Shown here one piece after another: positions 12,692-52,775 of a stretch of 64,000 nt of DNA. Under the pieces are notes generated by a model. The model had not been told where the DNA came from. It did no database searches and worked only from the letters and a program-made list of their open reading frames with translations. Position numbers and translations under genes: made by a program. Position 1 is the stretch's first letter. Each line of letters starts with the position of its first letter. The stretch lies in NCBI RefSeq assembly GCF_054482595.1, contig NZ_JBTHVH010000001.1, one strand, 5' to 3'. The stretch is from a plasmid.

Positions 12692-12779
12692 TCCAAGGTG
12701 AAATCGTGGCGATTTCACCTTGAAATTTTAGAGGGATTTACTTTAAAAACAGTAGGTTAATAGTGAAATTTAAATGGCG
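12692..12779 (-). other. parS: parS partition site (IHF site flanked by heptamer ATTTCAC and hexamer TCGCCA boxes)
   Basis: Reverse complement reads TCGCCATTTAAATTTCAC...AAATTTCAAGGTGAAATCGCCACGATTTCACCTTGG, matching the P1 parS layout. Confidence 0.8.
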
Positions 12780-12784
12780 AAAGT

Positions 12785-13786
12785 TTAAGGCTTCGGCTTT
12801 TTATCGAGGCTCTTTCTAAGGATATGCCCAATCATCCTGTCGAGTTCTTCCTGTAGCTCTTTTGAAAGTCGATTAAACTCATAAGAAAATGCACGGCCTT
12901 TCACGCGCTTCCTTGCAAAGCGATCCTTGTCCTCAAATTTCCATAATTCAGTAACTACGGACTTATCTTTAGAACCTTTATCCGTGAGTAGTGAGGCTTC
13001 CTTTGTTATCAAGCGCAGGATTTTATTTTTAACTTCATCTTCGGCCATTTCTTCAATGGATAAGATGTCGTTTATTTCCGGGGATATGTTTTGAATAAGC
13101 TGATCAAACTCTAAATTCTTGTTCCCCATTTCGTCGCCAACAGCACAAAGCGTTTTGTAGTCCGAAAAGGTTAATTCCGACTGCACAGGGAAAAGGGCGA
13201 CTAATTCTTCCGGAGCACTCGCTGCCTGGAGAGCACGCGTGACCTTCGCCTGAGACAGCCCTTCTTTGGCTGCAATATCCTTCTGACTCATCCCATCATT
13301 TTTCATTCGCATCAAACGCAGACCTATTTCTCGAATGCTGTGCTGCAATGCTGTCTGAACGTCTTTCGCTAAATTTTGCGCTTCCTGAACGCTGATCTCC
13401 TGGTCCGTGACTAAAACCCGCAACCCTACGTTCTCTAAGATGGCAGAAGCTCGACGCCGGGAACCATCCAAAATTTCAATTTTCCCTGTAGCCCGTCTGA
13501 CACCTATTGCAGGGTAAAATTGCTGATGCTTAATAGTGCTTCGGATACTTTTTAATGATTTTGGCGTAAGAGATGCCTGGTCACGCCCGTTGTTATGCTG
13601 ATCAACAAAGGTATCGCTTTCTACCTGGTTCGGAGGTATTACCTCTTCAATAAATGTGGCCTGGCGACCAGTTGATAACTTGAATACCTGCTCGACTCGA
13701 TCGCCAGAGGCTGAAGAACTATCAAATCCGCTTAATATTGAAGGATTAAGGGTTCGCCCAATTGTTGGTCTGTTTTTCTTTGACAT
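12785..13786 (-). CDS. parB: partition protein ParB
   Basis: 333 aa, directly upstream of parS and downstream of parA. Confidence 0.8.
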   Translation of the reverse strand: MSKKNRPTIGRTLNPSILSGFDSSSASGDRVEQVFKLSTGRQATFIEEVIPPNQVESDTFVDQHNNGRDQASLTPKSLKSIRSTIKHQQFYPAIGVRRATGKIEILDGSRRRASAILENVGLRVLVTDQEISVQEAQNLAKDVQTALQHSIREIGLRLMRMKNDGMSQKDIAAKEGLSQAKVTRALQAASAPEELVALFPVQSELTFSDYKTLCAVGDEMGNKNLEFDQLIQNISPEINDILSIEEMAEDEVKNKILRLITKEASLLTDKGSKDKSVVTELWKFEDKDRFARKRVKGRAFSYEFNRLSKELQEELDRMIGHILRKSLDKKPKP

Positions 13787-13802: not shown

Positions 13803-14999
13803 TCAGTTAGATCTGATAAATTCAATACGGTCAAAAACTGCTTTAGCAAAATCTTCCGCAGCAATTCGCGCGTTCTTCAATGCATCAGCACTACCAACAT
13901 ACGTTGCCGGGTTAGCTGAAATAACAGTGTCAAAAGACTCGCCGCAGCGTTCAAAACCGTCAAGGCGAGGGAGGACAACATCAAGCATATCCCCACCGAA
14001 CACTTCTTTAGCCAGGCTATGGCAATACTTATGGTCTGCCTTGTTACTCAACTTGGACATAAAACCAATGTTAGTTGCAAGCTGACACTCGCAGCCTTCA
14101 TCCGAAATGAGTTTCACCAACTCAGGAAGGCGGGCAACGTATTTAAGCGATGAGTGGAAATCAACCGTTGCAGGCGGCAGAGGTGTAAACAGTATATTGG
14201 CCGAGGCCAAAGCATTTTTCAGGAAGGCGTCAAGGTGAGGACCACTATCAACGAGGATAAAGTCATAATCGCTCTTCAGCTTATCAATCACATTCTCTTT
14301 CAGGACAGCATGGATGTTCTGACCCGGTAGATGCTCATTGCACAGCTCTCTCCAATCGGATGCAATAAAGGCATCGTCAATCGACGCAGGCATAACGTCA
14401 ACCCCAGGTACAACAGAAGGAACAATAAACTCCTCTAACAGCTCTTCACGGCTTACATTCTGCAACATAGCCTGTGCAGATGTTGCGTTTACGATACCAA
14501 TAGAGTGTTTATGGCTTAAAAACATCGTTGCTGAAGATTGCGGATCAAGGTCAATAACCAGAATCCTTAAATCTTCCATCAGAAGATGAGGGTGGGCACG
14601 CATTGCATGCGCCAGAGAAACCGTCGATACAGTTTTTGACACACCGCCTTTAAGATTGGAGATGAAAATCACATACGCTTCGCTGTAGCGATCCCGGTAT
14701 TTTGGCACTCCGCGATGTTCATATATGTCAATGATGTTCTGAATTGACATCGCATATTTCATTGAAGAGCCAGCAGGGCGTTTATCGAAAACATAACCCT
14801 TTTCTTCCATTTCACTTACGGCATAGTCAACGTTCGCACGAGTCAGTAGAGGCAATTTTGCCAGTGCCGCTTTCGCATAGACCTGGTAAAACTCGTTCGC
14901 GTGTAGCTCATCCTTTTGCAACTGTACTTGTTCAGTCAGAACATTGAGCATTCTATTTGCTCTTTGAGCAACCTTGTGAAGCTGGCTGGAATCACTCAT
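13803..14999 (-). CDS. parA: partition ATPase ParA
   Basis: 398 aa; deviant Walker A KGGVSKT; begins MSDSSQLHKVAQRANRMLNV as P1 ParA. Confidence 0.85.
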   Translation of the reverse strand: MSDSSQLHKVAQRANRMLNVLTEQVQLQKDELHANEFYQVYAKAALAKLPLLTRANVDYAVSEMEEKGYVFDKRPAGSSMKYAMSIQNIIDIYEHRGVPKYRDRYSEAYVIFISNLKGGVSKTVSTVSLAHAMRAHPHLLMEDLRILVIDLDPQSSATMFLSHKHSIGIVNATSAQAMLQNVSREELLEEFIVPSVVPGVDVMPASIDDAFIASDWRELCNEHLPGQNIHAVLKENVIDKLKSDYDFILVDSGPHLDAFLKNALASANILFTPLPPATVDFHSSLKYVARLPELVKLISDEGCECQLATNIGFMSKLSNKADHKYCHSLAKEVFGGDMLDVVLPRLDGFERCGESFDTVISANPATYVGSADALKNARIAAEDFAKAVFDRIEFIRSN

Positions 15000-15138
15000 C
15001 GAAAGTCATCCTTTATGCTGTATTTTTGAATTTAATTAAAAATGCTGCATAAAATAATAATGTATGCGTAGATGCTTGTACATAGCATTCTCTGCATGTT
15101 TGGTTCATTTTGCACGATTGAGAGTTACAAGGAGGGCA

Positions 15139-15161
15139 CAAAAAAGCCCCGTTCAGGGGCA
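15139..15161 (-). terminator. rho-independent terminator after the 15168 gene
   Basis: Hairpin GCCCCTGAACGGGGC followed by T-run on the minus strand. Confidence 0.55.
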
Positions 15162-15167
15162 TCAGTG

Positions 15168-15572
15168 TTATTTGCTAAGAGCAGCGAATAATCGTTCGAA
15201 ATCGATAGTATCTATAGCACGCGTAAGCGCCGGAAGTTCAGCCTCAAAGTACCCGTGTCGATCGTAAAAGAAGGGACCGAAGAGCGAGGCATGTTGGATT
15301 CTACTTCGCCCCAGCCCGGACACACAGTTAAGCCCATTACCGGCTAAAAGGCTAAAAAACTTCTCTGGATTATCGTGGTAAAGCTGGGAATCAATGGTGG
15401 CGGTTAACTCTTCCATAGGGAAGCACACCCGCCCTGTATCCCAGGGATATTTAGTCCGAAGCATAAACATTGCTTTCAGCAATTCACATTGAGCGCGGAT
15501 CGCGTCCGGTTCATAGCCAGATATGGAGACATAAGCCACGTCCCTCATTCCTGCGTCATCTTTGAAAGTCAC
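15168..15572 (-). CDS. hypothetical protein (134 aa)
   Basis: ORF with its own terminator; no recognisable motif. Confidence 0.45.
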   Translation of the reverse strand: MTFKDDAGMRDVAYVSISGYEPDAIRAQCELLKAMFMLRTKYPWDTGRVCFPMEELTATIDSQLYHDNPEKFFSLLAGNGLNCVSGLGRSRIQHASLFGPFFYDRHGYFEAELPALTRAIDTIDFERLFAALSK

Positions 15573-15698
15573 GATAGAAGTAACATCCAGCTCTTTTTCG
15601 AAAGAGCAAGCAGCATCTACTGGACGCTGAAGTAAATCATTCGACTTAATGCGCTCGAGAATCCCTCCCTACATATCATTTAGATATTCGATATGAGC

Positions 15699-15977
15699 CT
15701 AAACCTTATCAAGACACTCTCGTGTAAACCATTCAGTATGCCCGCCACCGGCGCTTTTCTCCCACGGCGCATTCCAGGGGAAAAAGGTTGCGTGTAAAGC
15801 CCGCTCAAGATTAACTATTGCCAAACGCGTACCACGATAGACCCGTGAAAGCGCAAAATCGGGACTCACTTGTAGCCCTTTAAACCGTGCCAATGGACCA
15901 CATGAAATGCCGATTTTAAAAGTATCTCCATTCTCCGGCACCAGAACGTAGAGGTAGTGTTGTTTCTCTTCTTGCAT
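15699..15977 (-). CDS. small standalone T5orf172/GIY-YIG-like domain protein (92 aa)
   Basis: YLYVL...KIGIS...GGHTEWF motif arrangement. Confidence 0.5.
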   Translation of the reverse strand: MQEEKQHYLYVLVPENGDTFKIGISCGPLARFKGLQVSPDFALSRVYRGTRLAIVNLERALHATFFPWNAPWEKSAGGGHTEWFTRECLDKV

Positions 15978-15984
15978 ATCAATA

Positions 15985-16240
15985 CCACTGCTTGATGAGA
16001 ACCGCGCAAATGTTGACTATGCGCGATGTGACTACAGTCAAAAGTTGACTGTAGTCGATTTAACTCCACCAAAGATCGACTATGTAAGATATTGTCGGGA
16101 GAAACGTTGACTATACGCGATGAAATGCCCCTAAAAGCCATCTCAATAGCGACTTGCAGAATATTGACGCCAGCAAAAATCCACCAGCGTCAACGAATGT
16201 CGCCTATAGTCAACTTCTCGCTATCGCATATAGTCAATAT
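15985..16240. repeat. incA: incA-like iteron array downstream of repA
   Basis: Multiple copies of the core (C/T)(A/G)TAGTCAA(C/T) in both orientations. Confidence 0.65.
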
Positions 16241-17124
16241 TATGGATTGCGCTTATGGATCTGGAAGCCGATTTTCCTGCCGTTTTTTATCTCTGAAAAT
16301 TTAAGATATTCAATAGCTTCCAAATCTTTCATGGCTTTTCTGATAACGCTATTTTGCACGCTAACGGATGATTTGAGATTAAGCCTCGCTCTAAGGCGCT
16401 CAATGCTGACAGGTGCCGGGTTGGCGGGTAGAGCCTCAAAGAATGTATACAGTACCTTGGCCGTCTCTTTGCGCCCTAGTTTATCCAGCATCTTCAGCTT
16501 CAGGATTCGCTTATAGTCAACATAGTAAAGTTCAGATAGCTGTTTCTGCGGCTGGATCTCGATAACATCAAGCTCGGTATTCAGGCTGCTATATGCCAAC
16601 AAGTTGACGTTAATGTTATTGAGATGACCTTTTGCCGCCGGGAAGCGGAATTTGACAACTGTCTGCTGAATGCGTGTCAGAGAGTCATCAATACTTTTAC
16701 GGAACGCCTTTGAAAGGCGCTTACGTGGATAGCCGCATCGATCGGCAAACTCGGAGAATGGCAGGGTGATTATGCCGTCATCATCAGGTGCGTAGTCAAA
16801 CAACGCGGAGGTTATGCCCACCCACACCTTAAAATCAGTATCCATATCCAGGCGTGGACCATGAATTTCAATTCCCTCATAGCCTTCCTGCTCAACAATT
16901 TTGAGGCTTGATAGTTCTTCAGTTGCGTTCGTTGTGTTTGTTGTAACTGACGATCCGCGACGTAGCGCCACATTGGTAGATTTTAAGGTTGGCACAAACA
17001 CACCTAAGCGCAACAAAGCGATGGGTTGTATAGTGCTGTTGTTATTGGGCTTCAGGCTGTGGATTTCTCCTGTATTTCCTGCAACTTCTTCAACGCTAAG
17101 GAAGCCTTTACTTTCTTCCGGCAT
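16240..17124 (-). CDS. repA: plasmid replication initiator RepA (iteron-binding), divergent from P1 RepA
   Basis: Flanked by iteron arrays; preferred ATG at 17124 with GGAG Shine-Dalgarno (track start 17160); blocks such as GPRLDMDTDFK and PLALLRLGVFVP resemble P1 RepA. Confidence 0.75.
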   Translation of the reverse strand: MPEESKGFLSVEEVAGNTGEIHSLKPNNNSTIQPIALLRLGVFVPTLKSTNVALRRGSSVTTNTTNATEELSSLKIVEQEGYEGIEIHGPRLDMDTDFKVWVGITSALFDYAPDDDGIITLPFSEFADRCGYPRKRLSKAFRKSIDDSLTRIQQTVVKFRFPAAKGHLNNINVNLLAYSSLNTELDVIEIQPQKQLSELYYVDYKRILKLKMLDKLGRKETAKVLYTFFEALPANPAPVSIERLRARLNLKSSVSVQNSVIRKAMKDLEAIEYLKFSEIKNGRKIGFQIHKRNP

Positions 17125-17164
17125 CACGGTTTCTCCATGTGTGGCGCGGCCTGACGTCAATTTG

Positions 17165-17440
17165 GATGGCTGTTATCAACAGCTGTGAATATTCAGACTC
17201 TAAAATCGCTTACAGTCAATGTTTCTGTCGCGTATAGTCAACAATAAATCGCGTGCAGTCAACAATAAATCGTGCACAGTCAACATAAAATCGCGTATAG
17301 TCAATGTTGATCCCATTTCAGGCCAGTAATGACGCGGCTTACAGCGATCCGGGATCTTCTTTGGATCTTCCTAGGTTCTCTTTAGGATCTGTTTATTGGA
17401 TCTATGCTGTGGATAAGTTGAATAAACCGGCCAACAAAGC
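17165..17440. other. oriR-like plasmid origin: five direct iterons, five GATC-containing heptamers, DnaA box
   Basis: Five repeats of AAATCG(C/T)G(T/C)A(T/C)AGTCAA 17195-17310; GATC sites 17345-17395; TGTGGATAA at 17411-17419. Confidence 0.7.
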
Positions 17441-17459
17441 CGGTTGGAAGGAAGTCATA

Positions 17460-17852
17460 TTATTCTACGCTTTCGATAAGAAGACCATGTTCATAACATT
17501 TAAGCTCATCGCCTTCGTACAGGAATTGGTATCCAATACCACCATTTTCATGGACATTAGGGAATAACTCATAACTCACTGAAGAGCAAATCACACCAAT
17601 GCAACGATCAACGCCTTCTCGTTCTTCAGTGCTGAAAAAATCCTCTTCGGTAAGAACATGAGTACATTGCTCATCAGCATAGGTCGGAAATACATGCTCG
17701 ATGCAATCCGGGTGTTTTAAACCAAGCTGATCGGCAAGCTCGAAAGCATGACGGTATTGTTCAGATCCTGGCTTGCCAACAGTGATGTGCTCAATTTTGT
17801 AGATTGAAGTCGCTTTGTTGATAGTTTGCTTTACTGTTACTTTATCAGACAT
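17460..17852 (-). CDS. hypothetical protein (130 aa)
   Basis: ORF immediately after oriR. Confidence 0.45.
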   Translation of the reverse strand: MSDKVTVKQTINKATSIYKIEHITVGKPGSEQYRHAFELADQLGLKHPDCIEHVFPTYADEQCTHVLTEEDFFSTEEREGVDRCIGVICSSVSYELFPNVHENGGIGYQFLYEGDELKCYEHGLLIESVE

Positions 17853-24100: not shown

Positions 24101-24744
24101 ATGAAGTGCAGCTCTTTGAAGCAACCAGAAGATAAGCATCTGGCTTCACAACATAAACCGCAGGAACGACCAATAAACGGTAGTCCGTATGGAGAACACC
24201 CCGTTGAGGAAGAGGCCTGGCCGGAACCGTAACCGGCACTACAACGTTGAGAACACTGGCGTAACGGGGTCATATCCCAATCTACGAATAAATGTTGCGT
24301 TGCAGCGTGACAACCAGTGTTCTCAACATTGTGGTGAATGCACAGGCTGATGTGCCGCAACTACAGTAGTGCGCGCTTTGCGGGGCTTGCTACAACCCTG
24401 TGTCGGAGTTCAGCACCGACCATCACAGTTTGATTCTCTGGCATGAGCATAACGCTGAAATAAGTCCAGCCTGGTGCGGCCCGATCACCCGCCGTTAGCT
24501 CCACGAAACGGAGCACGTAACAGGTAAGAGCATTCTCCTGTAACGGGTTCATATCCCAATCTACAGGTCCACCAAGAATGCTCTTTCCGTTGCGGTGAAT
24601 GCGGCTAAGCACACGCGGGGAAATGGTTATATCAGTCCATTCATTTCTCCTTGTTTCCCCGTCCACGGTGGATAACCAGCCAAAGGACACCGGGAGGCAC
24701 CCGGCACCGCAGCTTTTTTATTCGTTAAATAATGGAGTGAGAGG

Positions 24745-24981
24745 ATGCAGAACAATCCGAACAAATGTCGAACGCTATGGGTGCGGTTATATATTTATGC
24801 CGTCCTCTGTTTGATTGTGTCACTGGTTCTGTATGTTTGGCTTTTGCCAAATATGATCTCATCTAACAGCACAATACTTGTATTGTTGGGAGTCCTTCTC
24901 GCGCTCATTTACCCGGCTTTCGCAGTAGTCTTTTTTCGTGAAAAAACCAGGAAATTAATTAATGAAAAAAACGTTGATTAG
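24745..24981 (+). CDS. small membrane protein (two predicted TM helices)
   Basis: 78-aa ORF overlapping the start of the SPFH lipoprotein gene. Confidence 0.4.
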   Translation: MQNNPNKCRTLWVRLYIYAVLCLIVSLVLYVWLLPNMISSNSTILVLLGVLLALIYPAFAVVFFREKTRKLINEKNVD

Positions 24982-25789
24982 TGCAGCGATTATTTTGGGT
25001 TCTTTATGTCTGACCGGATGCGATCGGGTAGAGCCAGGTAACGTAGGGATCAAAGTAAATAAGCTGGGGGATGATAAAGGTATCGGTGAAGTAGTTGGCG
25101 TTGGTCGCTACTGGACAGGCTTGAATACTGAAGTTTATATCTTCCCGACCTTTAAGCAAATGAAGACATACGATGAGCCGTTCAGCTTCCAGATGAGCGA
25201 CGGAACAACCATTGGTTACCACATCGGCGTAGCCTACAAGGTTGATCCAGCAAAAGTCACAACGGTATTTCAGACCTATCGCAAAGGTGTAGATGATATT
25301 ACTGATACCGATCTACGCCAGAAGGTTGCAGATGCTCTGAACCGGTTAGCCAGCAAAATGACCACCGACAAATTTATCGACGGTGGCAAATCTGAATTGC
25401 TTGATGCAGCCCTTAAAGACATTCAGGAAGAAATGACGCCAATCGGCATTCAGGTGATGAGCCTCTCTTATGTAGGTAAGCCAGAATACCCGCCAACAGT
25501 TATTGACAGTATTAACGCCAAAGTCACGGCAAACCAAAAAACCCTGCAACGCGAGCAAGAGGTCAAACAACGTGAAGCAGAGGCCAACATGCTGCGCGCG
25601 GAAGCTGCCGGACAGGCTGATGCTATTCGCACAAAAGCCCAGGCCGAAGCTGATGCCATTCGTTTACGTGGTGAAGCTCTGCGCCAGAACCCCGGTGTTA
25701 TGGAGTTGGAAGCGATCAACAAATGGAACGGTACATTACCGCAGTATATGACCAGTAATACCGCTGTTCCGTTTGTTCCGGTGAAATAA
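24962..25789 (+). CDS. SPFH/band-7-like lipoprotein
   Basis: Lipobox LTGC; Ala/Glu/Gln-rich coiled coil near C-terminus. Confidence 0.55.
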   Translation: MKKTLISAAIILGSLCLTGCDRVEPGNVGIKVNKLGDDKGIGEVVGVGRYWTGLNTEVYIFPTFKQMKTYDEPFSFQMSDGTTIGYHIGVAYKVDPAKVTTVFQTYRKGVDDITDTDLRQKVADALNRLASKMTTDKFIDGGKSELLDAALKDIQEEMTPIGIQVMSLSYVGKPEYPPTVIDSINAKVTANQKTLQREQEVKQREAEANMLRAEAAGQADAIRTKAQAEADAIRLRGEALRQNPGVMELEAINKWNGTLPQYMTSNTAVPFVPVK

Positions 25790-25816
25790 AAGCGTAAGCA
25801 AAATTGGCAGTAATCC

Positions 25817-42420: not shown

Positions 42421-42936
42421 ATGGCGTTAACACACCGCGAACTCTGTCAGATTGCGTACAAGTTCCTTAAGCGCAACGGGTTCAAGGTTTGTTTTCATGA
42501 CCGCTTTATAGCTGTAACCAGTACCGGAGAACAGCCAGATGCTATGGGATTCAGAAATTCAGCATCATGCCTGATAGAGGCGAAATGTTCTCGTGCTGAC
42601 TTGTTGGCAGATAGAAAAAAGCGTTTTCGTAAAAATCCGTCTCTTGGAATGGGCGACTGGCGATTCTTTATTAGTGAGCCGGGAATTATTTCAATTGAGG
42701 ATTTACCACCTGGCTGGGGATTACTTCACGTTGTTAACGGAAGAGTACGGAAAGTACATGGGTGGCCCAAGGGTAATTGCTGTTGGGGTAATCCTGACGA
42801 TAAGCCATTTACTGGAAATAAGCAGGTTGAATGCGATTACATGTTATCTGCATTAAGGCGCATGGAGTTAAGAGGGCACCTTAATGAAATATATGACGGT
42901 GTAATTGTTAATAAGAAAGAAGGAAACGCGGCATGA
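42421..42936 (+). CDS. putative PD-(D/E)xK-type nuclease-like protein
   Basis: ATG at 42421 with GGAG Shine-Dalgarno; EQPDAMGF...CLIEAKCSRADL spacing. Confidence 0.35.
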   Translation: MALTHRELCQIAYKFLKRNGFKVCFHDRFIAVTSTGEQPDAMGFRNSASCLIEAKCSRADLLADRKKRFRKNPSLGMGDWRFFISEPGIISIEDLPPGWGLLHVVNGRVRKVHGWPKGNCCWGNPDDKPFTGNKQVECDYMLSALRRMELRGHLNEIYDGVIVNKKEGNAA

Positions 42937-43841
42937 TCACTATTACCAAAGAGCGACTACTGACAATCAAGCAGTGGCGCGAAACATACGGACCTGGTAG
43001 CAACGTTGTACTGCCAGCAGAAGAAGCGGAAGAACTGGCACGAATTGCTCTGGCATCGCTGGAGCAGAATGTACTATCGGGCAACTCTCCGCTTATTCCT
43101 GGTGAAGTGTTGTCCGCAATCCGGGAGGTTGCCAGGATTCGTGCCGATTTCGATGATTTTGACGGTGACAGGCGAGGTATCGGTGATTGTCTGGATGAGG
43201 CCGAGCAAGAGCTTATCGTTACCATTAACAAATATGCCAGTCAGTTGGCAGCAGAACCGATAGCGACTAATGACGTTCGAGAGCAAACAGCCGTTCCGCC
43301 AATACAGGCTGATGTCGCGCAAGCAATTGAAAATCTCAAGCAGAAGTTAGTGGAATGCAATCGCTATAACTACTGCGCAGATGCAGTGAAGAACGTAGAG
43401 GATGCCTGCCGTGCTGTTAGCTATAGCCAAGCCGACAATCAGCCAGCATCTGGCAACCAGGCTGCCGAATCCAATCGCGGTAATGAGTGGACTGGCAATC
43501 CTGATATTGATAACGCCATCATCATGCTCGACCGCATAGATACGCTGGAAAATTGCGATGATGACCGTATTGAGGCTGTTAAGGCTGTTTTGCGTAGACT
43601 GGCTGGCAACTCTCCGGTAACTCCGGATGGTTGGATAAGCTGTAGTGAGCGAATGCCGGATACCAAAACAGCCGTTCTTGTTGCCAGGGAGTTTGACAGG
43701 AAAGGTGACTGGCGAATGAAATGGGCGACTTACATCCCGGGGCATCCTGACGCTAATGATGGGTGGGTAATACCTGGTGCGTCGTGGATTCCATCACACT
43801 GGATGCCGCTACCAGAACCGCCGCAGGAGGTGAATCAATGA
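42933..43841 (+). CDS. hypothetical protein with DUF551-like C-terminus
   Basis: WISCSERMP...VLVA...WMPLPEPP block. Confidence 0.4.
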   Translation: MITITKERLLTIKQWRETYGPGSNVVLPAEEAEELARIALASLEQNVLSGNSPLIPGEVLSAIREVARIRADFDDFDGDRRGIGDCLDEAEQELIVTINKYASQLAAEPIATNDVREQTAVPPIQADVAQAIENLKQKLVECNRYNYCADAVKNVEDACRAVSYSQADNQPASGNQAAESNRGNEWTGNPDIDNAIIMLDRIDTLENCDDDRIEAVKAVLRRLAGNSPVTPDGWISCSERMPDTKTAVLVAREFDRKGDWRMKWATYIPGHPDANDGWVIPGASWIPSHWMPLPEPPQEVNQ

Positions 43842-43905
43842 GCTGGCCTGAAGCATTCACCACGGTAGGAATTGTGATGGCGGCAGCACTGGGTTTGTAT
43901 TCAAT

Positions 43906-44157
43906 TTGTCGCTGGTGGTAACGATGGGAAAAATAACTTTTGTAGTCGAATTTGAGGATGGCAAAGAGCCACCTGTTAGCGCCAATCTTGATGTTGCTGG
44001 TGGCAGGCTTGTTTCGGTTCTATTTGGTGACTACCGAGATGACTTCTTCCAACCAGAAGAAGTTGATGTAGTGCGAGAGGCATTAAACGAGTTAAGTGTT
44101 GATAACGATGATGCTCATGCGGAAATCATCCAAAAAATGGAACTGCTAACTCACTAA
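43906..44157 (+). CDS. hypothetical small protein
   Basis: TTG start in track; ATG at 43924 possible. Confidence 0.3.
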   Translation: MSLVVTMGKITFVVEFEDGKEPPVSANLDVAGGRLVSVLFGDYRDDFFQPEEVDVVREALNELSVDNDDAHAEIIQKMELLTH

Positions 44158-44335
44158 ATTATCAATTATGGTGCTATCACCTACGACACCGAGAGAAAAT
44201 TTATAATGTCAAAAGTAAATGTTTTGATTTTTTCAGCAATTGTTGGCTTTGGTTTTACTGCCGGAGTGCAGATTTATATTACGTGGGAAAAAATCATCAA
44301 CTACGCATGGAGTTGTTTTATTAAGTGAGGTAAGT

Positions 44336-44629
44336 ATGTGGAGAGGTAATAGTCATGGCAAAAGCCAGATGATACTTACCGAATATCAGTTTGACCATAA
44401 AACCAATAAATCACGTTCAGTATATTTGCTTCGGCACAATAGCCGCGTAAGGAATACCGTGCTGGAGCAAAATCTGACTGTTGAAATAGATAGTTACGGG
44501 GGCTTCAAGCCAACAATTTCGCTTGATGATTTTCCTCGTGGTTTAAGCGAAAGAGAAGCAATGCTGAAATTAGCAGAATGGCTACAAAGATTAAGCATTG
44601 CTATTGAAGATAACTGGTCTGAACCTTAA
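44336..44629 (+). CDS. hypothetical protein
   Basis: ATG at 44336 preferred over track TTG start at 44240. Confidence 0.35.
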   Translation: MWRGNSHGKSQMILTEYQFDHKTNKSRSVYLLRHNSRVRNTVLEQNLTVEIDSYGGFKPTISLDDFPRGLSEREAMLKLAEWLQRLSIAIEDNWSEP

Positions 44630-44635
44630 ATTTAT

Positions 44636-45010
44636 ATGATGACACTAAAACATTTTCTTGACCGCCCATTATGGGCGGCAGCCGCAGGCTATGACTTTAA
44701 TTATATGGATTGCATGTCTTATACCGCCAATGCATACGACTATTCCTTCAGTCTGCTGCTTAATTCTTTAAGAATATTGCCGCAAACAGAAGTTGGAGAG
44801 CTTCATTTATGGCTATTGGGCTTTATCGCGGCTGTCGTTGGTATTGCTGTATGGCCTTTTATTTTCTGGCTGGTGGCTGTTGTAGTGTGGTTTAAGTGCA
44901 AGACATACCGGAAAAAGTATTTCTTAGGTGATGGAATGACTGATATTGCCAAAATGAACATTGAAGAATGGACTAAGGAATGTGAAAAGAAATGGCGCAA
45001 AAAGAAATGA
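44636..45010 (+). CDS. membrane protein (two TM helices)
   Basis: Hydrophobic segments. Confidence 0.4.
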   Translation: MMTLKHFLDRPLWAAAAGYDFNYMDCMSYTANAYDYSFSLLLNSLRILPQTEVGELHLWLLGFIAAVVGIAVWPFIFWLVAVVVWFKCKTYRKKYFLGDGMTDIAKMNIEEWTKECEKKWRKKK

Positions 45011-45849
45011 CCAGAATAACTGAAGAGCGCATATCAGAGATTATTTCCCGTATCGAAATGTATGGTCACGGTGCTGGATATACGGCAGATGAAGGATTGG
45101 AAATAGCCCAGCAGATGCTGGCCTTGAGACAAAAAGAGCAACATGAAAGTAATACGTGTAGATTGAATTTTGAGCATTGGCTGGAACAGCAACGCGGAAA
45201 AATCGATGTGGACTGTGGTTGTGTGTCCACTGAAACATTCATGCACTGGCTGTGGGTAGCTTACGAGGCTGGCAACTATCCGGATATTCCGGATAGTTCG
45301 GTGCCAGCGCCAGGAAAGGGCGTCACCGGTGAACGTATCCGCATTAAGCCGCATGTTTATCGCGAACTGGTTAACCGTCTCCACGATACAGCGATCAAGT
45401 GTGCTGGCACCCAGCAATTACGAGAAAGAATTAGCCGTGTTTTGGGCGACGTTATTACACCAGATCATCATAAACAAGCCGAGAAAAGTGACCTGGAAAG
45501 GTGTCACCTTGAGGCGGCATTAAACATTAAGCCGGGGCATACGCTTGGCATTATTGATGCACTATTGGTTCATAAGATGGCCAGGGCTTTATTGCCGCTG
45601 GTGGCTGAAAAAGAGAACGCGAGCCTCAAAAAAATGCTGTCGCGGGCGGAAAGGGAATTATCAGGCAAATTATTGCCAGAAGAACTGCCACCAGCAGATA
45701 TACCAGATCGAGTGTCCCAGTGGATGAAGTCTTTTGGTTTGCCGTGGGAGGCTTTTTGGTGCTACGACCATCGCAGATGGTGTGATGAACTTGATAGCAA
45801 TTTTCCCTACTTTGCGGAAGGGAACACCTGCCCTCAATGCAGGGGATAG
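44992..45849 (+). CDS. hypothetical protein (285 aa)
   Basis: ORF in the plus-strand early/accessory block. Confidence 0.4.
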   Translation: MAQKEMTRITEERISEIISRIEMYGHGAGYTADEGLEIAQQMLALRQKEQHESNTCRLNFEHWLEQQRGKIDVDCGCVSTETFMHWLWVAYEAGNYPDIPDSSVPAPGKGVTGERIRIKPHVYRELVNRLHDTAIKCAGTQQLRERISRVLGDVITPDHHKQAEKSDLERCHLEAALNIKPGHTLGIIDALLVHKMARALLPLVAEKENASLKKMLSRAERELSGKLLPEELPPADIPDRVSQWMKSFGLPWEAFWCYDHRRWCDELDSNFPYFAEGNTCPQCRG

Positions 45850-52216: not shown

Positions 52217-52234
52217 ATTTGCTCTAATAAATTG
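52217..52234 (+). promoter_or_regulatory. C1 operator-like site upstream of immI-like module B
   Basis: ATTTGCTCTAATAAATTG. Confidence 0.6.
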
Positions 52235-52424
52235 TGTTTTTTAACTACCGATGTTACATTGAACCTGACCTCTTGCGCCTTGAGGCATTTTCGGTTTATG
52301 CTTATCAGGCACCTCAGTAAAACGGGTGCCGGGATTGGCCTCCCGCTTAAGTCTAAGGCGATACAGACGCCGCTCGCGTCTTTTTTTTGTATCGGCGTAC
52401 ACGCACACCTCTACAATGGTGGGC

Positions 52425-52497
52425 TGTATGGGGCTACCTTCGGGTAGGCTGGTTACCTTGGACGCCAGTAAGGCCAACTCCGTACAGTCCACCGCCA
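52425..52497 (+). ncRNA. c4-like antisense RNA of module B (approximate)
   Basis: Alignable with module A c4 region; specificity element ACCTTGGAC (52455-52463) complementary, with one G-U, to GTCTAAGG at 52351-52358 and 52535-52542. Confidence 0.4.
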
Positions 52498-52553
52498 GCA
52501 AGATTGGTCTCTTCTGCGGTGGTTACATACCAACGTCTAAGGAGGCTGCCAAT

Positions 52554-52775
52554 ATGGCTACTATCCCTACCCCAACTCATCCTGAATTTATCTGGCGCTT
52601 TTACTCCTGCCAAAAACGTCACTATCACTTCGTTATTGCACCGACAGAAGATGAGGCACGTTCTCAGCTTCCTGACGCCCCATGTATTTTCTCTGCCCGT
52701 TTTTCCACTGATTCACGCAATTCTCTCAGTTACTGGTGCCTCCCTGTTAACGCTTCTGCTCAGGAGGGACTATGA
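52554..52775 (+). CDS. Icd-like protein, module B
   Basis: 73 aa; paralogue of icd; stop overlaps ant-B start. Confidence 0.6.
   Translation: MATIPTPTHPEFIWRFYSCQKRHYHFVIAPTEDEARSQLPDAPCIFSARFSTDSRNSLSYWCLPVNASAQEGL

Follow-up and report, generated by a model that had tools for sequence, protein, structure and literature searches.

P1-like phage-plasmids disseminate resistance genes (among them CTX-M, SHV-2 and mcr-1) and are tracked by replicon type. The stretch of plasmid DNA analyzed here, 64,000 nucleotides in length and hereafter called the window, carries P1-type partition genes on one side of its replication gene and the P1 gene upfA on the other. The locus in between raises two questions: which replicon drives this P1-like backbone, and what does that replicon mean for incompatibility with P1 itself?

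We compared the window with the annotated P1 genome (NC_005856). Homology to P1 at 99% identity spans gp23, parS, parB, parA and the promoter Ppar, up to the left junction listed in Table 1. Within parS, the four A boxes and two B boxes were all identical to those of P1, the differences being confined to the spacers and the IHF site. The system thus shows both marks of P1-type partition, namely the A and B boxes of parS (box B2 included) and the ParB discriminator, with six identical boxes and a fully identical ParB. Farther along the window, Cre was 100% identical to its P1 counterpart at the amino acid level and an exact loxP site was located at position 55476. Phd was likewise 100% identical and Doc differed by one residue, in a phd-doc block of approximately 93% nucleotide identity, while C1 differed by two residues and c1 was 96.7% identical at the nucleotide level. 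The backbone was collinear with P1 through cre/loxP, c1, phd-doc and the structural genes, in blocks 93-99% identical, as expected of a Punavirus. The earlier note on this DNA, made from the letters alone, had described par, cre-loxP, c1 and phd-doc as identical to P1 or nearly so; near-identity is correct, and identity is too strong a word for c1 and phd-doc. The paper on SJ46 relays that ParA and ParB of RCS47 match P7 and not P1, and states that SJ46 has the same Par proteins as RCS47 (PMC5241659). In our alignments, for which SJ46 alone was used, its ParA and ParB were of P1 type (397/398 and 332/333 aa).

Several other segments of the window also departed from P1. The tciA-tciC region was replaced (24712-25807) by a gene encoding an SPFH/Band 7 protein (24962-25789), and a 5.2-kb non-P1 block in the pmgT-pmgV region (40067-45260) encoded PAPS-reductase-like, Ead/Ea22-like and DUF551 proteins. 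A 1.7-kb insertion between pacB and c1 (52217-53923) encoded a protein of the Ash family together with an ORF6N/KilAC antirepressor. The P1 ref region was replaced (57548-60111) by a KilAC antirepressor-like gene on the minus strand together with a gene whose product has a metallo-beta-lactamase fold.

Between the two junctions, only two stretches could be aligned with P1: a 59-bp patch in repA and a segment containing GATC sites and a DnaA box, which is homologous to the Dam-site region of P1 at approximately 74% identity with indels. Because this segment still aligns to P1, we placed the right junction at ~17416-17440 and not within the iterons. As judged from the alignment, the cassette is the segment from ~15099 to ~17416-17440, and it stands in place of P1 positions 61313 to ~62900.

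The initiator encoded in the cassette is clearly related to P1 RepA (42% identical and 60% similar over 272 aa, E = 1e-70), and tblastn gave the same identity, 42.3%, to the RepA proteins of both P1 and P7. For its start codon we followed the NCBI PGAP call in near-identical plasmids such as NZ_CP062833.1, although the open reading frame extends to a TTG at 17160 (306 aa, 16240-17160, minus strand). In Pfam, the window RepA matched Rep3_C with 27.1 bits (cut-off 21.1) and fell just under the cut-off for Rep3_N (21.8 bits, cut-off 22.4). P1 RepA presented the mirror pattern of scores for these two models, and both proteins appear to contain the Rep_3 domains WH1 and WH2. No NCBIfam model matched either RepA or the T5orf172 protein encoded next to it.

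To describe the iterons, we searched the 64-kb window with the 15-mer TCGCGTATAGTCAAC, allowing up to three mismatches, and added a position-weight scan. The 15-mer gave 13 matches compared with 1.18 expected from shuffled sequence, and 11 of the 13 fell within 16012-17305, which amounts to 11 iterons in 1.3 kb. Their consensus, aATCGCgTAtAGTCAACaTT, shares 10 of 24 positions in the best ungapped register with the consensus TtTCCCTCCAGCACACATc derived from the fourteen annotated P1 iterons. The P1 iteron GATGTGTGCTGGAGGGAAA had no match at three or fewer mismatches in the 64-kb window, and no window-type iteron was found in P1 56-66 kb. In plasmids with proven P1 incompatibility (IncY), the RepA proteins reach 72-73% identity to that of P1, and the iterons are nearly identical (PMC10999674). 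Neither of the sequence marks of IncY, P1-type 19-bp iterons and a RepA at least 72% identical to that of P1, was present in the cassette, where RepA identity is 42% over the 272 aligned residues. The divergent RepA and the departure from the 19-bp P1 iteron, both claimed in the earlier note, were therefore borne out, neither element being near-identical to P1 on alignment. The mosaic that it proposed is also right: a divergent RepA/iteron cassette lies between a P1-type par locus and P1-type upfA with the backbone downstream.

The internal anatomy of the cassette (Table 1) is that of a repA gene flanked by iterons on both sides, as the earlier note had it, and this arrangement is far beyond chance; the coordinates 15985-17440 given there delimit the span from incA to oriR well. 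Tandem repeats beside rep in numbers beyond chance, together with a DnaA box, are as expected of an iteron-controlled Rep_3 theta replicon. The proposed core, AAATCG(C/T)G(T/C)A(T/C)AGTCAA, was exact in two of the five origin copies, and the other three departed from it at one to three positions. In the control array, the distal group includes a degenerate fourth copy near 16075, and the last iteron of the proximal group overlaps the repA stop codon. Every iteron in the window contains a TTGACT hexamer, which resembles a -35 element. A sigma-70 consensus scan of the iterons, within which the P1 repA promoter lies, yielded no minus-strand candidate, and hence no repA promoter is claimed. An iteron-like site within the repA coding sequence has the orientation of the origin copies, and P1 is without an annotated counterpart. 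We also observed an inverted repeat at 16027-16061, GACTACAGTCAA-AAG-TTGACTGTAGTC, in which a control iteron is faced by a partial copy.

Table 1. Features of the replicon cassette and of its P1-type flanks, with positions in the window.
Feature	Position	Strand	Description
parS centromere, P1 type (incB determinant)	12698-12780	-	94% nt identity to P1 parS
parB, P1 type	12785-13786	-	Protein 100% identical to P1 ParB
parA, P1 type	13803-14999	-	1 aa different from P1 ParA
Ppar promoter and ParA operator	14997-15082	-	86/86 nt identical to P1 61211-61296
Left cassette junction	15099-15102		P1 homology (99%) stops at 15098-15101 = P1 61312-61315
Terminator-like hairpin after T5orf172 gene	15146-15160	-	GCCCCTGAACGGGGC followed by a T run; consensus match only
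T5orf172/GIY-YIG-family gene, pseudogene in this copy	15168-15977	-	Pfam T5orf172, 29.2 bits (cut-off 20)
incA-like control array, distal group	16009-16123	-	Three iterons (16012, 16044, 16106), 31-32 bp spacing
incA-like control array, proximal group	16197-16241	+	Two iterons (16200, 16224), origin orientation
repA, p0111 type	16240-17124	-	294 aa from ATG 17124
Iteron-like site within repA	16504-16524 (15-mer 16507-16521)	+	TCGCTTATAGTCAAC, 1 mismatch to the 15-mer
DnaA-box-like site between iterons and repA	17173-17181	+	TTATCAACA, 8/9
Five origin iterons (incC equivalent)	17203-17308	+	Direct copies, 21-22 bp spacing, just upstream of repA
Origin GATC cluster	17309-17402		Six sites in 94 bp; window background 4 per kb
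DnaA box, outer end of the origin	17408-17416	-	TTATCCACA, perfect, 9/9
Right junction zone and hairpin after upfA	17417-17447		P1 identity climbs from ~74% to ~96%
upfA, where the P1 backbone resumes	17460-17852	-	96.4% nt; 126/131 translated codons (stop included) as in P1 UpfA

The earlier note had suggested replicon typing and had treated the combination as a possible novelty. Typing assigned the replicon to the well-known p0111 type. Compared with plasmid pO111_2 (NC_013370.1), repA was identical at 873 of 885 nucleotides (98.6%) and RepA at 292 of 294 residues (99.3%), where the typing level is a repA nucleotide identity of at least ~95% over most of the gene. The record NC_013370.1 is the RefSeq twin of AP010962, the p0111 typing reference named in PMC11165635. 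A MOB-suite label of "IncHI1B", attached in PLSDB to the near-identical plasmid NZ_CP062833.1, is at odds with the repA comparison and seems to be an artefact of typing; it was set aside because the comparison with pO111_2 is direct. The region as a whole was 97.7-99.9% identical to phi456, SJ46, RCS47, JL22 and Ro157c2YLVW. In PLSDB, 404 plasmids carried the cassette, as did 418 of the 5,426 complete E. coli genomes; with the p0111 assignment, the element falls into an existing and very common class that roughly 8% of such genomes contain.

The cassette is thus already known, and the exchange of repA(p0111) for repA(IncY) in P1-like phage-plasmids is already published. SJ46 was reported to have a RepA 42% identical to that of P1 and to be untypeable by PCR replicon typing (PMC5241659). 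In JL22, repA'(p0111) and an unknown gene, gp57, were described in place of repA(IncY), and p0111 was found in 24 of 55 P1-like elements (PMC9603915). Among Salmonella phage-plasmids, 132 were p0111 and 94 IncY, with ~17 switches on a core-gene tree (PMC11165635). Our literature search found no paper on the p0111 iterons. What we add to the published descriptions is anatomical only. The swap changes RepA and the iterons, which are the specificity parts, and keeps the architecture of the P1 replicon; the right junction falls at the origin's outer edge; and P1 parS/ParB and C1 are kept, so that a different Inc type does not equal coexistence with P1. Taken together, we are highly confident that the region is the low-copy theta prophage replicon of a p0111-type P1-like phage-plasmid, a homologue of the P1 R-replicon with changed specificity that arrived as a cassette.

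On the sequence anatomy, homology, junctions and type assignment observed here, a working scheme can be drawn up by analogy with the P1 replication-control model, as summarized in PMC10999674. RepA monomers would occupy the origin iterons and, together with DnaA of the host and the Dam-methylated GATC sites, would open the origin for theta replication. Binding at the iterons, which would overlap the repA promoter region, would at the same time repress repA. The downstream array would titrate RepA and pair with, or "handcuff," the origin, keeping the copy number at about one per chromosome. Read in the direction of repA, the cassette runs through a DnaA box, the six GATC sites, the five iterons, repA, the control array, the T5orf172 gene and the terminator-like hairpin, the control array itself consisting of two iterons in origin orientation followed by three or four in the opposite one at ~31 bp spacing. 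RepA-iteron binding, autorepression and handcuffing are what we infer from this analogy.

The copy in the window has two features of its own. First, where SJ46, pO111_2 and most relatives have a further 30-bp incA iteron unit, at ~16012 (site 16009-16029), this copy has none; the loss is a deletion between two identical GTTGACTATGCGCGA repeats. This short form is rare, with about 2 of the 54 full-length PLSDB matches listed and none of the approximately 25 full-length E. coli genome matches listed, as scored by span and piece count. With one unit missing, copy control may differ slightly from that of the common allele, and the short allele may raise copy number. It is also conceivable that loss or gain of 30-bp incA units acts as a natural copy-number dial. 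The other feature concerns the T5orf172 gene, which corresponds to PHROG phrog_2876 (profile and full length, 269 aa). Relative to SJ46, codons 93 (15700) and 103 (15670) of the window gene are amber stops; the domain match passes its cut-off, but the reading frame of the would-be GIY-YIG/T5orf172 nuclease is broken. Both the short incA allele and the two-amber gene are shared with NZ_CP062833.1. The gene is truncated elsewhere too, by another stop in pO111_2 (codon 112) and by one early in the frame in SJ46. The T5orf172 protein is essentially confined to the p0111 cassette, with only 5 protein clusters found among 5.8 billion.

The closest relatives of the window RepA are variants of 84-94% identity within punavirus-like elements, and no relative was found between 53% and 84% identity. 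Three RepA variants are 84-85% identical to one another: that of the window, that of D6-like elements (NZ_CP085065.1) and that of a distant P1-like contig (L013). The replicon on NZ_CP085065.1 (L006 3700-5130) and on five similar E. coli and E. marmotae plasmids is of the p0111 family, with RepA at 85% and nucleotide identity at 77%. Like the window, the replicons of NZ_CP085065.1 and L013 have five iterons at 21 bp, a GATC cluster and DnaA boxes; at the nucleotide level they are just 71-77% identical to it. The D6-like elements carry the replicon at a different genomic position, between transglycosylase and tail genes, and without a T5orf172 neighbor. In L013 the order repA-T5orf172-parA-parB is that of the window, and the replicon looks native there, because the entire L013 backbone is about 70% identical. 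As the iteron core TTGACTAT(A/G)(C/T)GCGAT is retained in all three variants, the p0111 family seems to be native to the broader group of punavirus-like elements. From there, recombination in conserved flanking sequence probably carried the p0111 replicon into P1-proper backbones.

Two other accounts of how the cassette came to lie in a P1 backbone were weighed against that recombination. One is that nothing was replaced, the cassette being the P1 (IncY) replicon itself after gradual drift. Such drift would explain the shared overall architecture, the homologous origin segment and a RepA whose homology to that of P1 is clear (E = 1e-70), but we regard it as extremely improbable. The flanks are 96-99% identical to P1, and the cassette between them cannot be aligned at the nucleotide level save for the 59-bp patch and the ~74% GATC segment; this combination argues for replacement and not for gradual drift. 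Moreover, proven IncY replicons keep a RepA identity of 72-73% and near-identical iterons (PMC10999674), against 42% and 10/24 here, and typing schemes hold IncY and p0111 apart (PMC9603915, PMC11165635). The other account accepts replacement and ascribes it to the T5orf172/GIY-YIG gene, as a homing-type endonuclease that cut the IncY locus, co-converted the neighboring replicon and later decayed. The confinement of the gene to the cassette speaks for homing, as do its same position in L013, with T5orf172 44% identical while RepA is 84% identical, and its independent inactivations in the window (codons 93 and 103), pO111_2 (codon 112) and SJ46 (early stop). The ~17 reported replicon-type switches (PMC11165635) fit as well, and, if true, T5orf172 homing would explain the many IncY/p0111 switches together with the repeated later inactivation of the gene. 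The nuclease function is backed solely by the T5orf172 domain match, however, and the swaps are explicable by homologous recombination in the conserved flanks with no nuclease needed. The related D6-like replicon also does without the gene, and the 269-aa full-length form, with 1,241 members, predominates, which speaks against general decay. We therefore consider homing very unlikely, and continue with a replicon exchanged as a cassette, probably through its conserved flanks.

What the exchange means for incompatibility depends on the determinant. Iterons determine the replication incompatibility of P1, and box B2 with ParB sets its P1-specific partition incompatibility, the second determinant of P1 (PMC10999674). 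Because RepA is 42% identical and the iteron sequence is different, cross-reaction with P1 RepA and iterons is unlikely; we infer that it has been lost, and replication incompatibility (incA/incC) should differ from that of P1. The earlier note had concluded that the element has a different incompatibility specificity, which on this evidence is reasonable for the replication determinants only. The partition determinant (parS/ParB) and C1 immunity are still of P1 type, and therefore a change would be expected only in replication-control incompatibility. For the same reason, P1 and the whole element should still be incapable of stable coexistence. Taken in its strong form, the inference of the earlier note would be that the replicon swap suffices for both prophages to coexist, making the whole element compatible with P1. 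This supposition draws on the different replication determinants (RepA 42%, iterons 10/24) and on the published view that the p0111 and IncY types "can theoretically be compatible" (PMC11165635). Against it, no parS A or B box differs from P1 and the ParB proteins match at 100%, box B2 and ParB being what sets partition incompatibility (PMC10999674). Superinfection immunity would also be common to both elements, since C1 differs by just 2 aa. In addition, the literature searched contained no report of IncY-type and p0111-type P1-like elements residing together. The same literature yielded no experiment on incompatibility, RepA-iteron binding or copy control of the p0111 replicon. Overall, compatibility of the whole element with P1 has, in our judgment, only a very small probability, and the reading we retain is a change limited to the replication determinants.

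Among known systems, the p0111 phage-plasmids pO111_2, SJ46, RCS47, JL22 and phi456 have the same gene order as the window, parB-parA-T5orf172-incA-repA-oriR-upfA. RepFIB-type replicons, found in IncF and SSU5-like plasmids, belong to the same Rep_3 initiator clade with RepA proteins 44-49% identical, which is why some records name the gene "RepFIB replication protein A." They constitute, however, a separate replicon type on other backbones, and the window RepA is no closer to them than to P1 RepA. With the P1/P7 (IncY) replicon, the cassette has in common an initiator that appears to be of the Rep_3 family, its location in the genome, with parA on one side and upfA on the other, and five origin iterons at 21-22 bp spacing beside a GATC cluster and a DnaA box. 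The five origin iterons of the window align in register with P1 iterons 10-14. Both replicons also have a downstream control array in two orientations with ~31 bp spacing, the last copy abutting the repA stop codon. In P1 this array consists of six plus three iterons in the two orientations, and the proximal group of the window is laid out like P1 incA iterons 7-9. The differences lie in the number of control iterons (five or six in the window, nine in P1), in the outer DnaA box (one in the window, two tandem boxes in P1) and in the extra T5orf172 gene between incA and Ppar, which P1 and P7 do not have. Judged by these comparisons, the cassette replicon is a homologue of that of P1 in which the specificity parts have been exchanged, and not an unrelated replicon.
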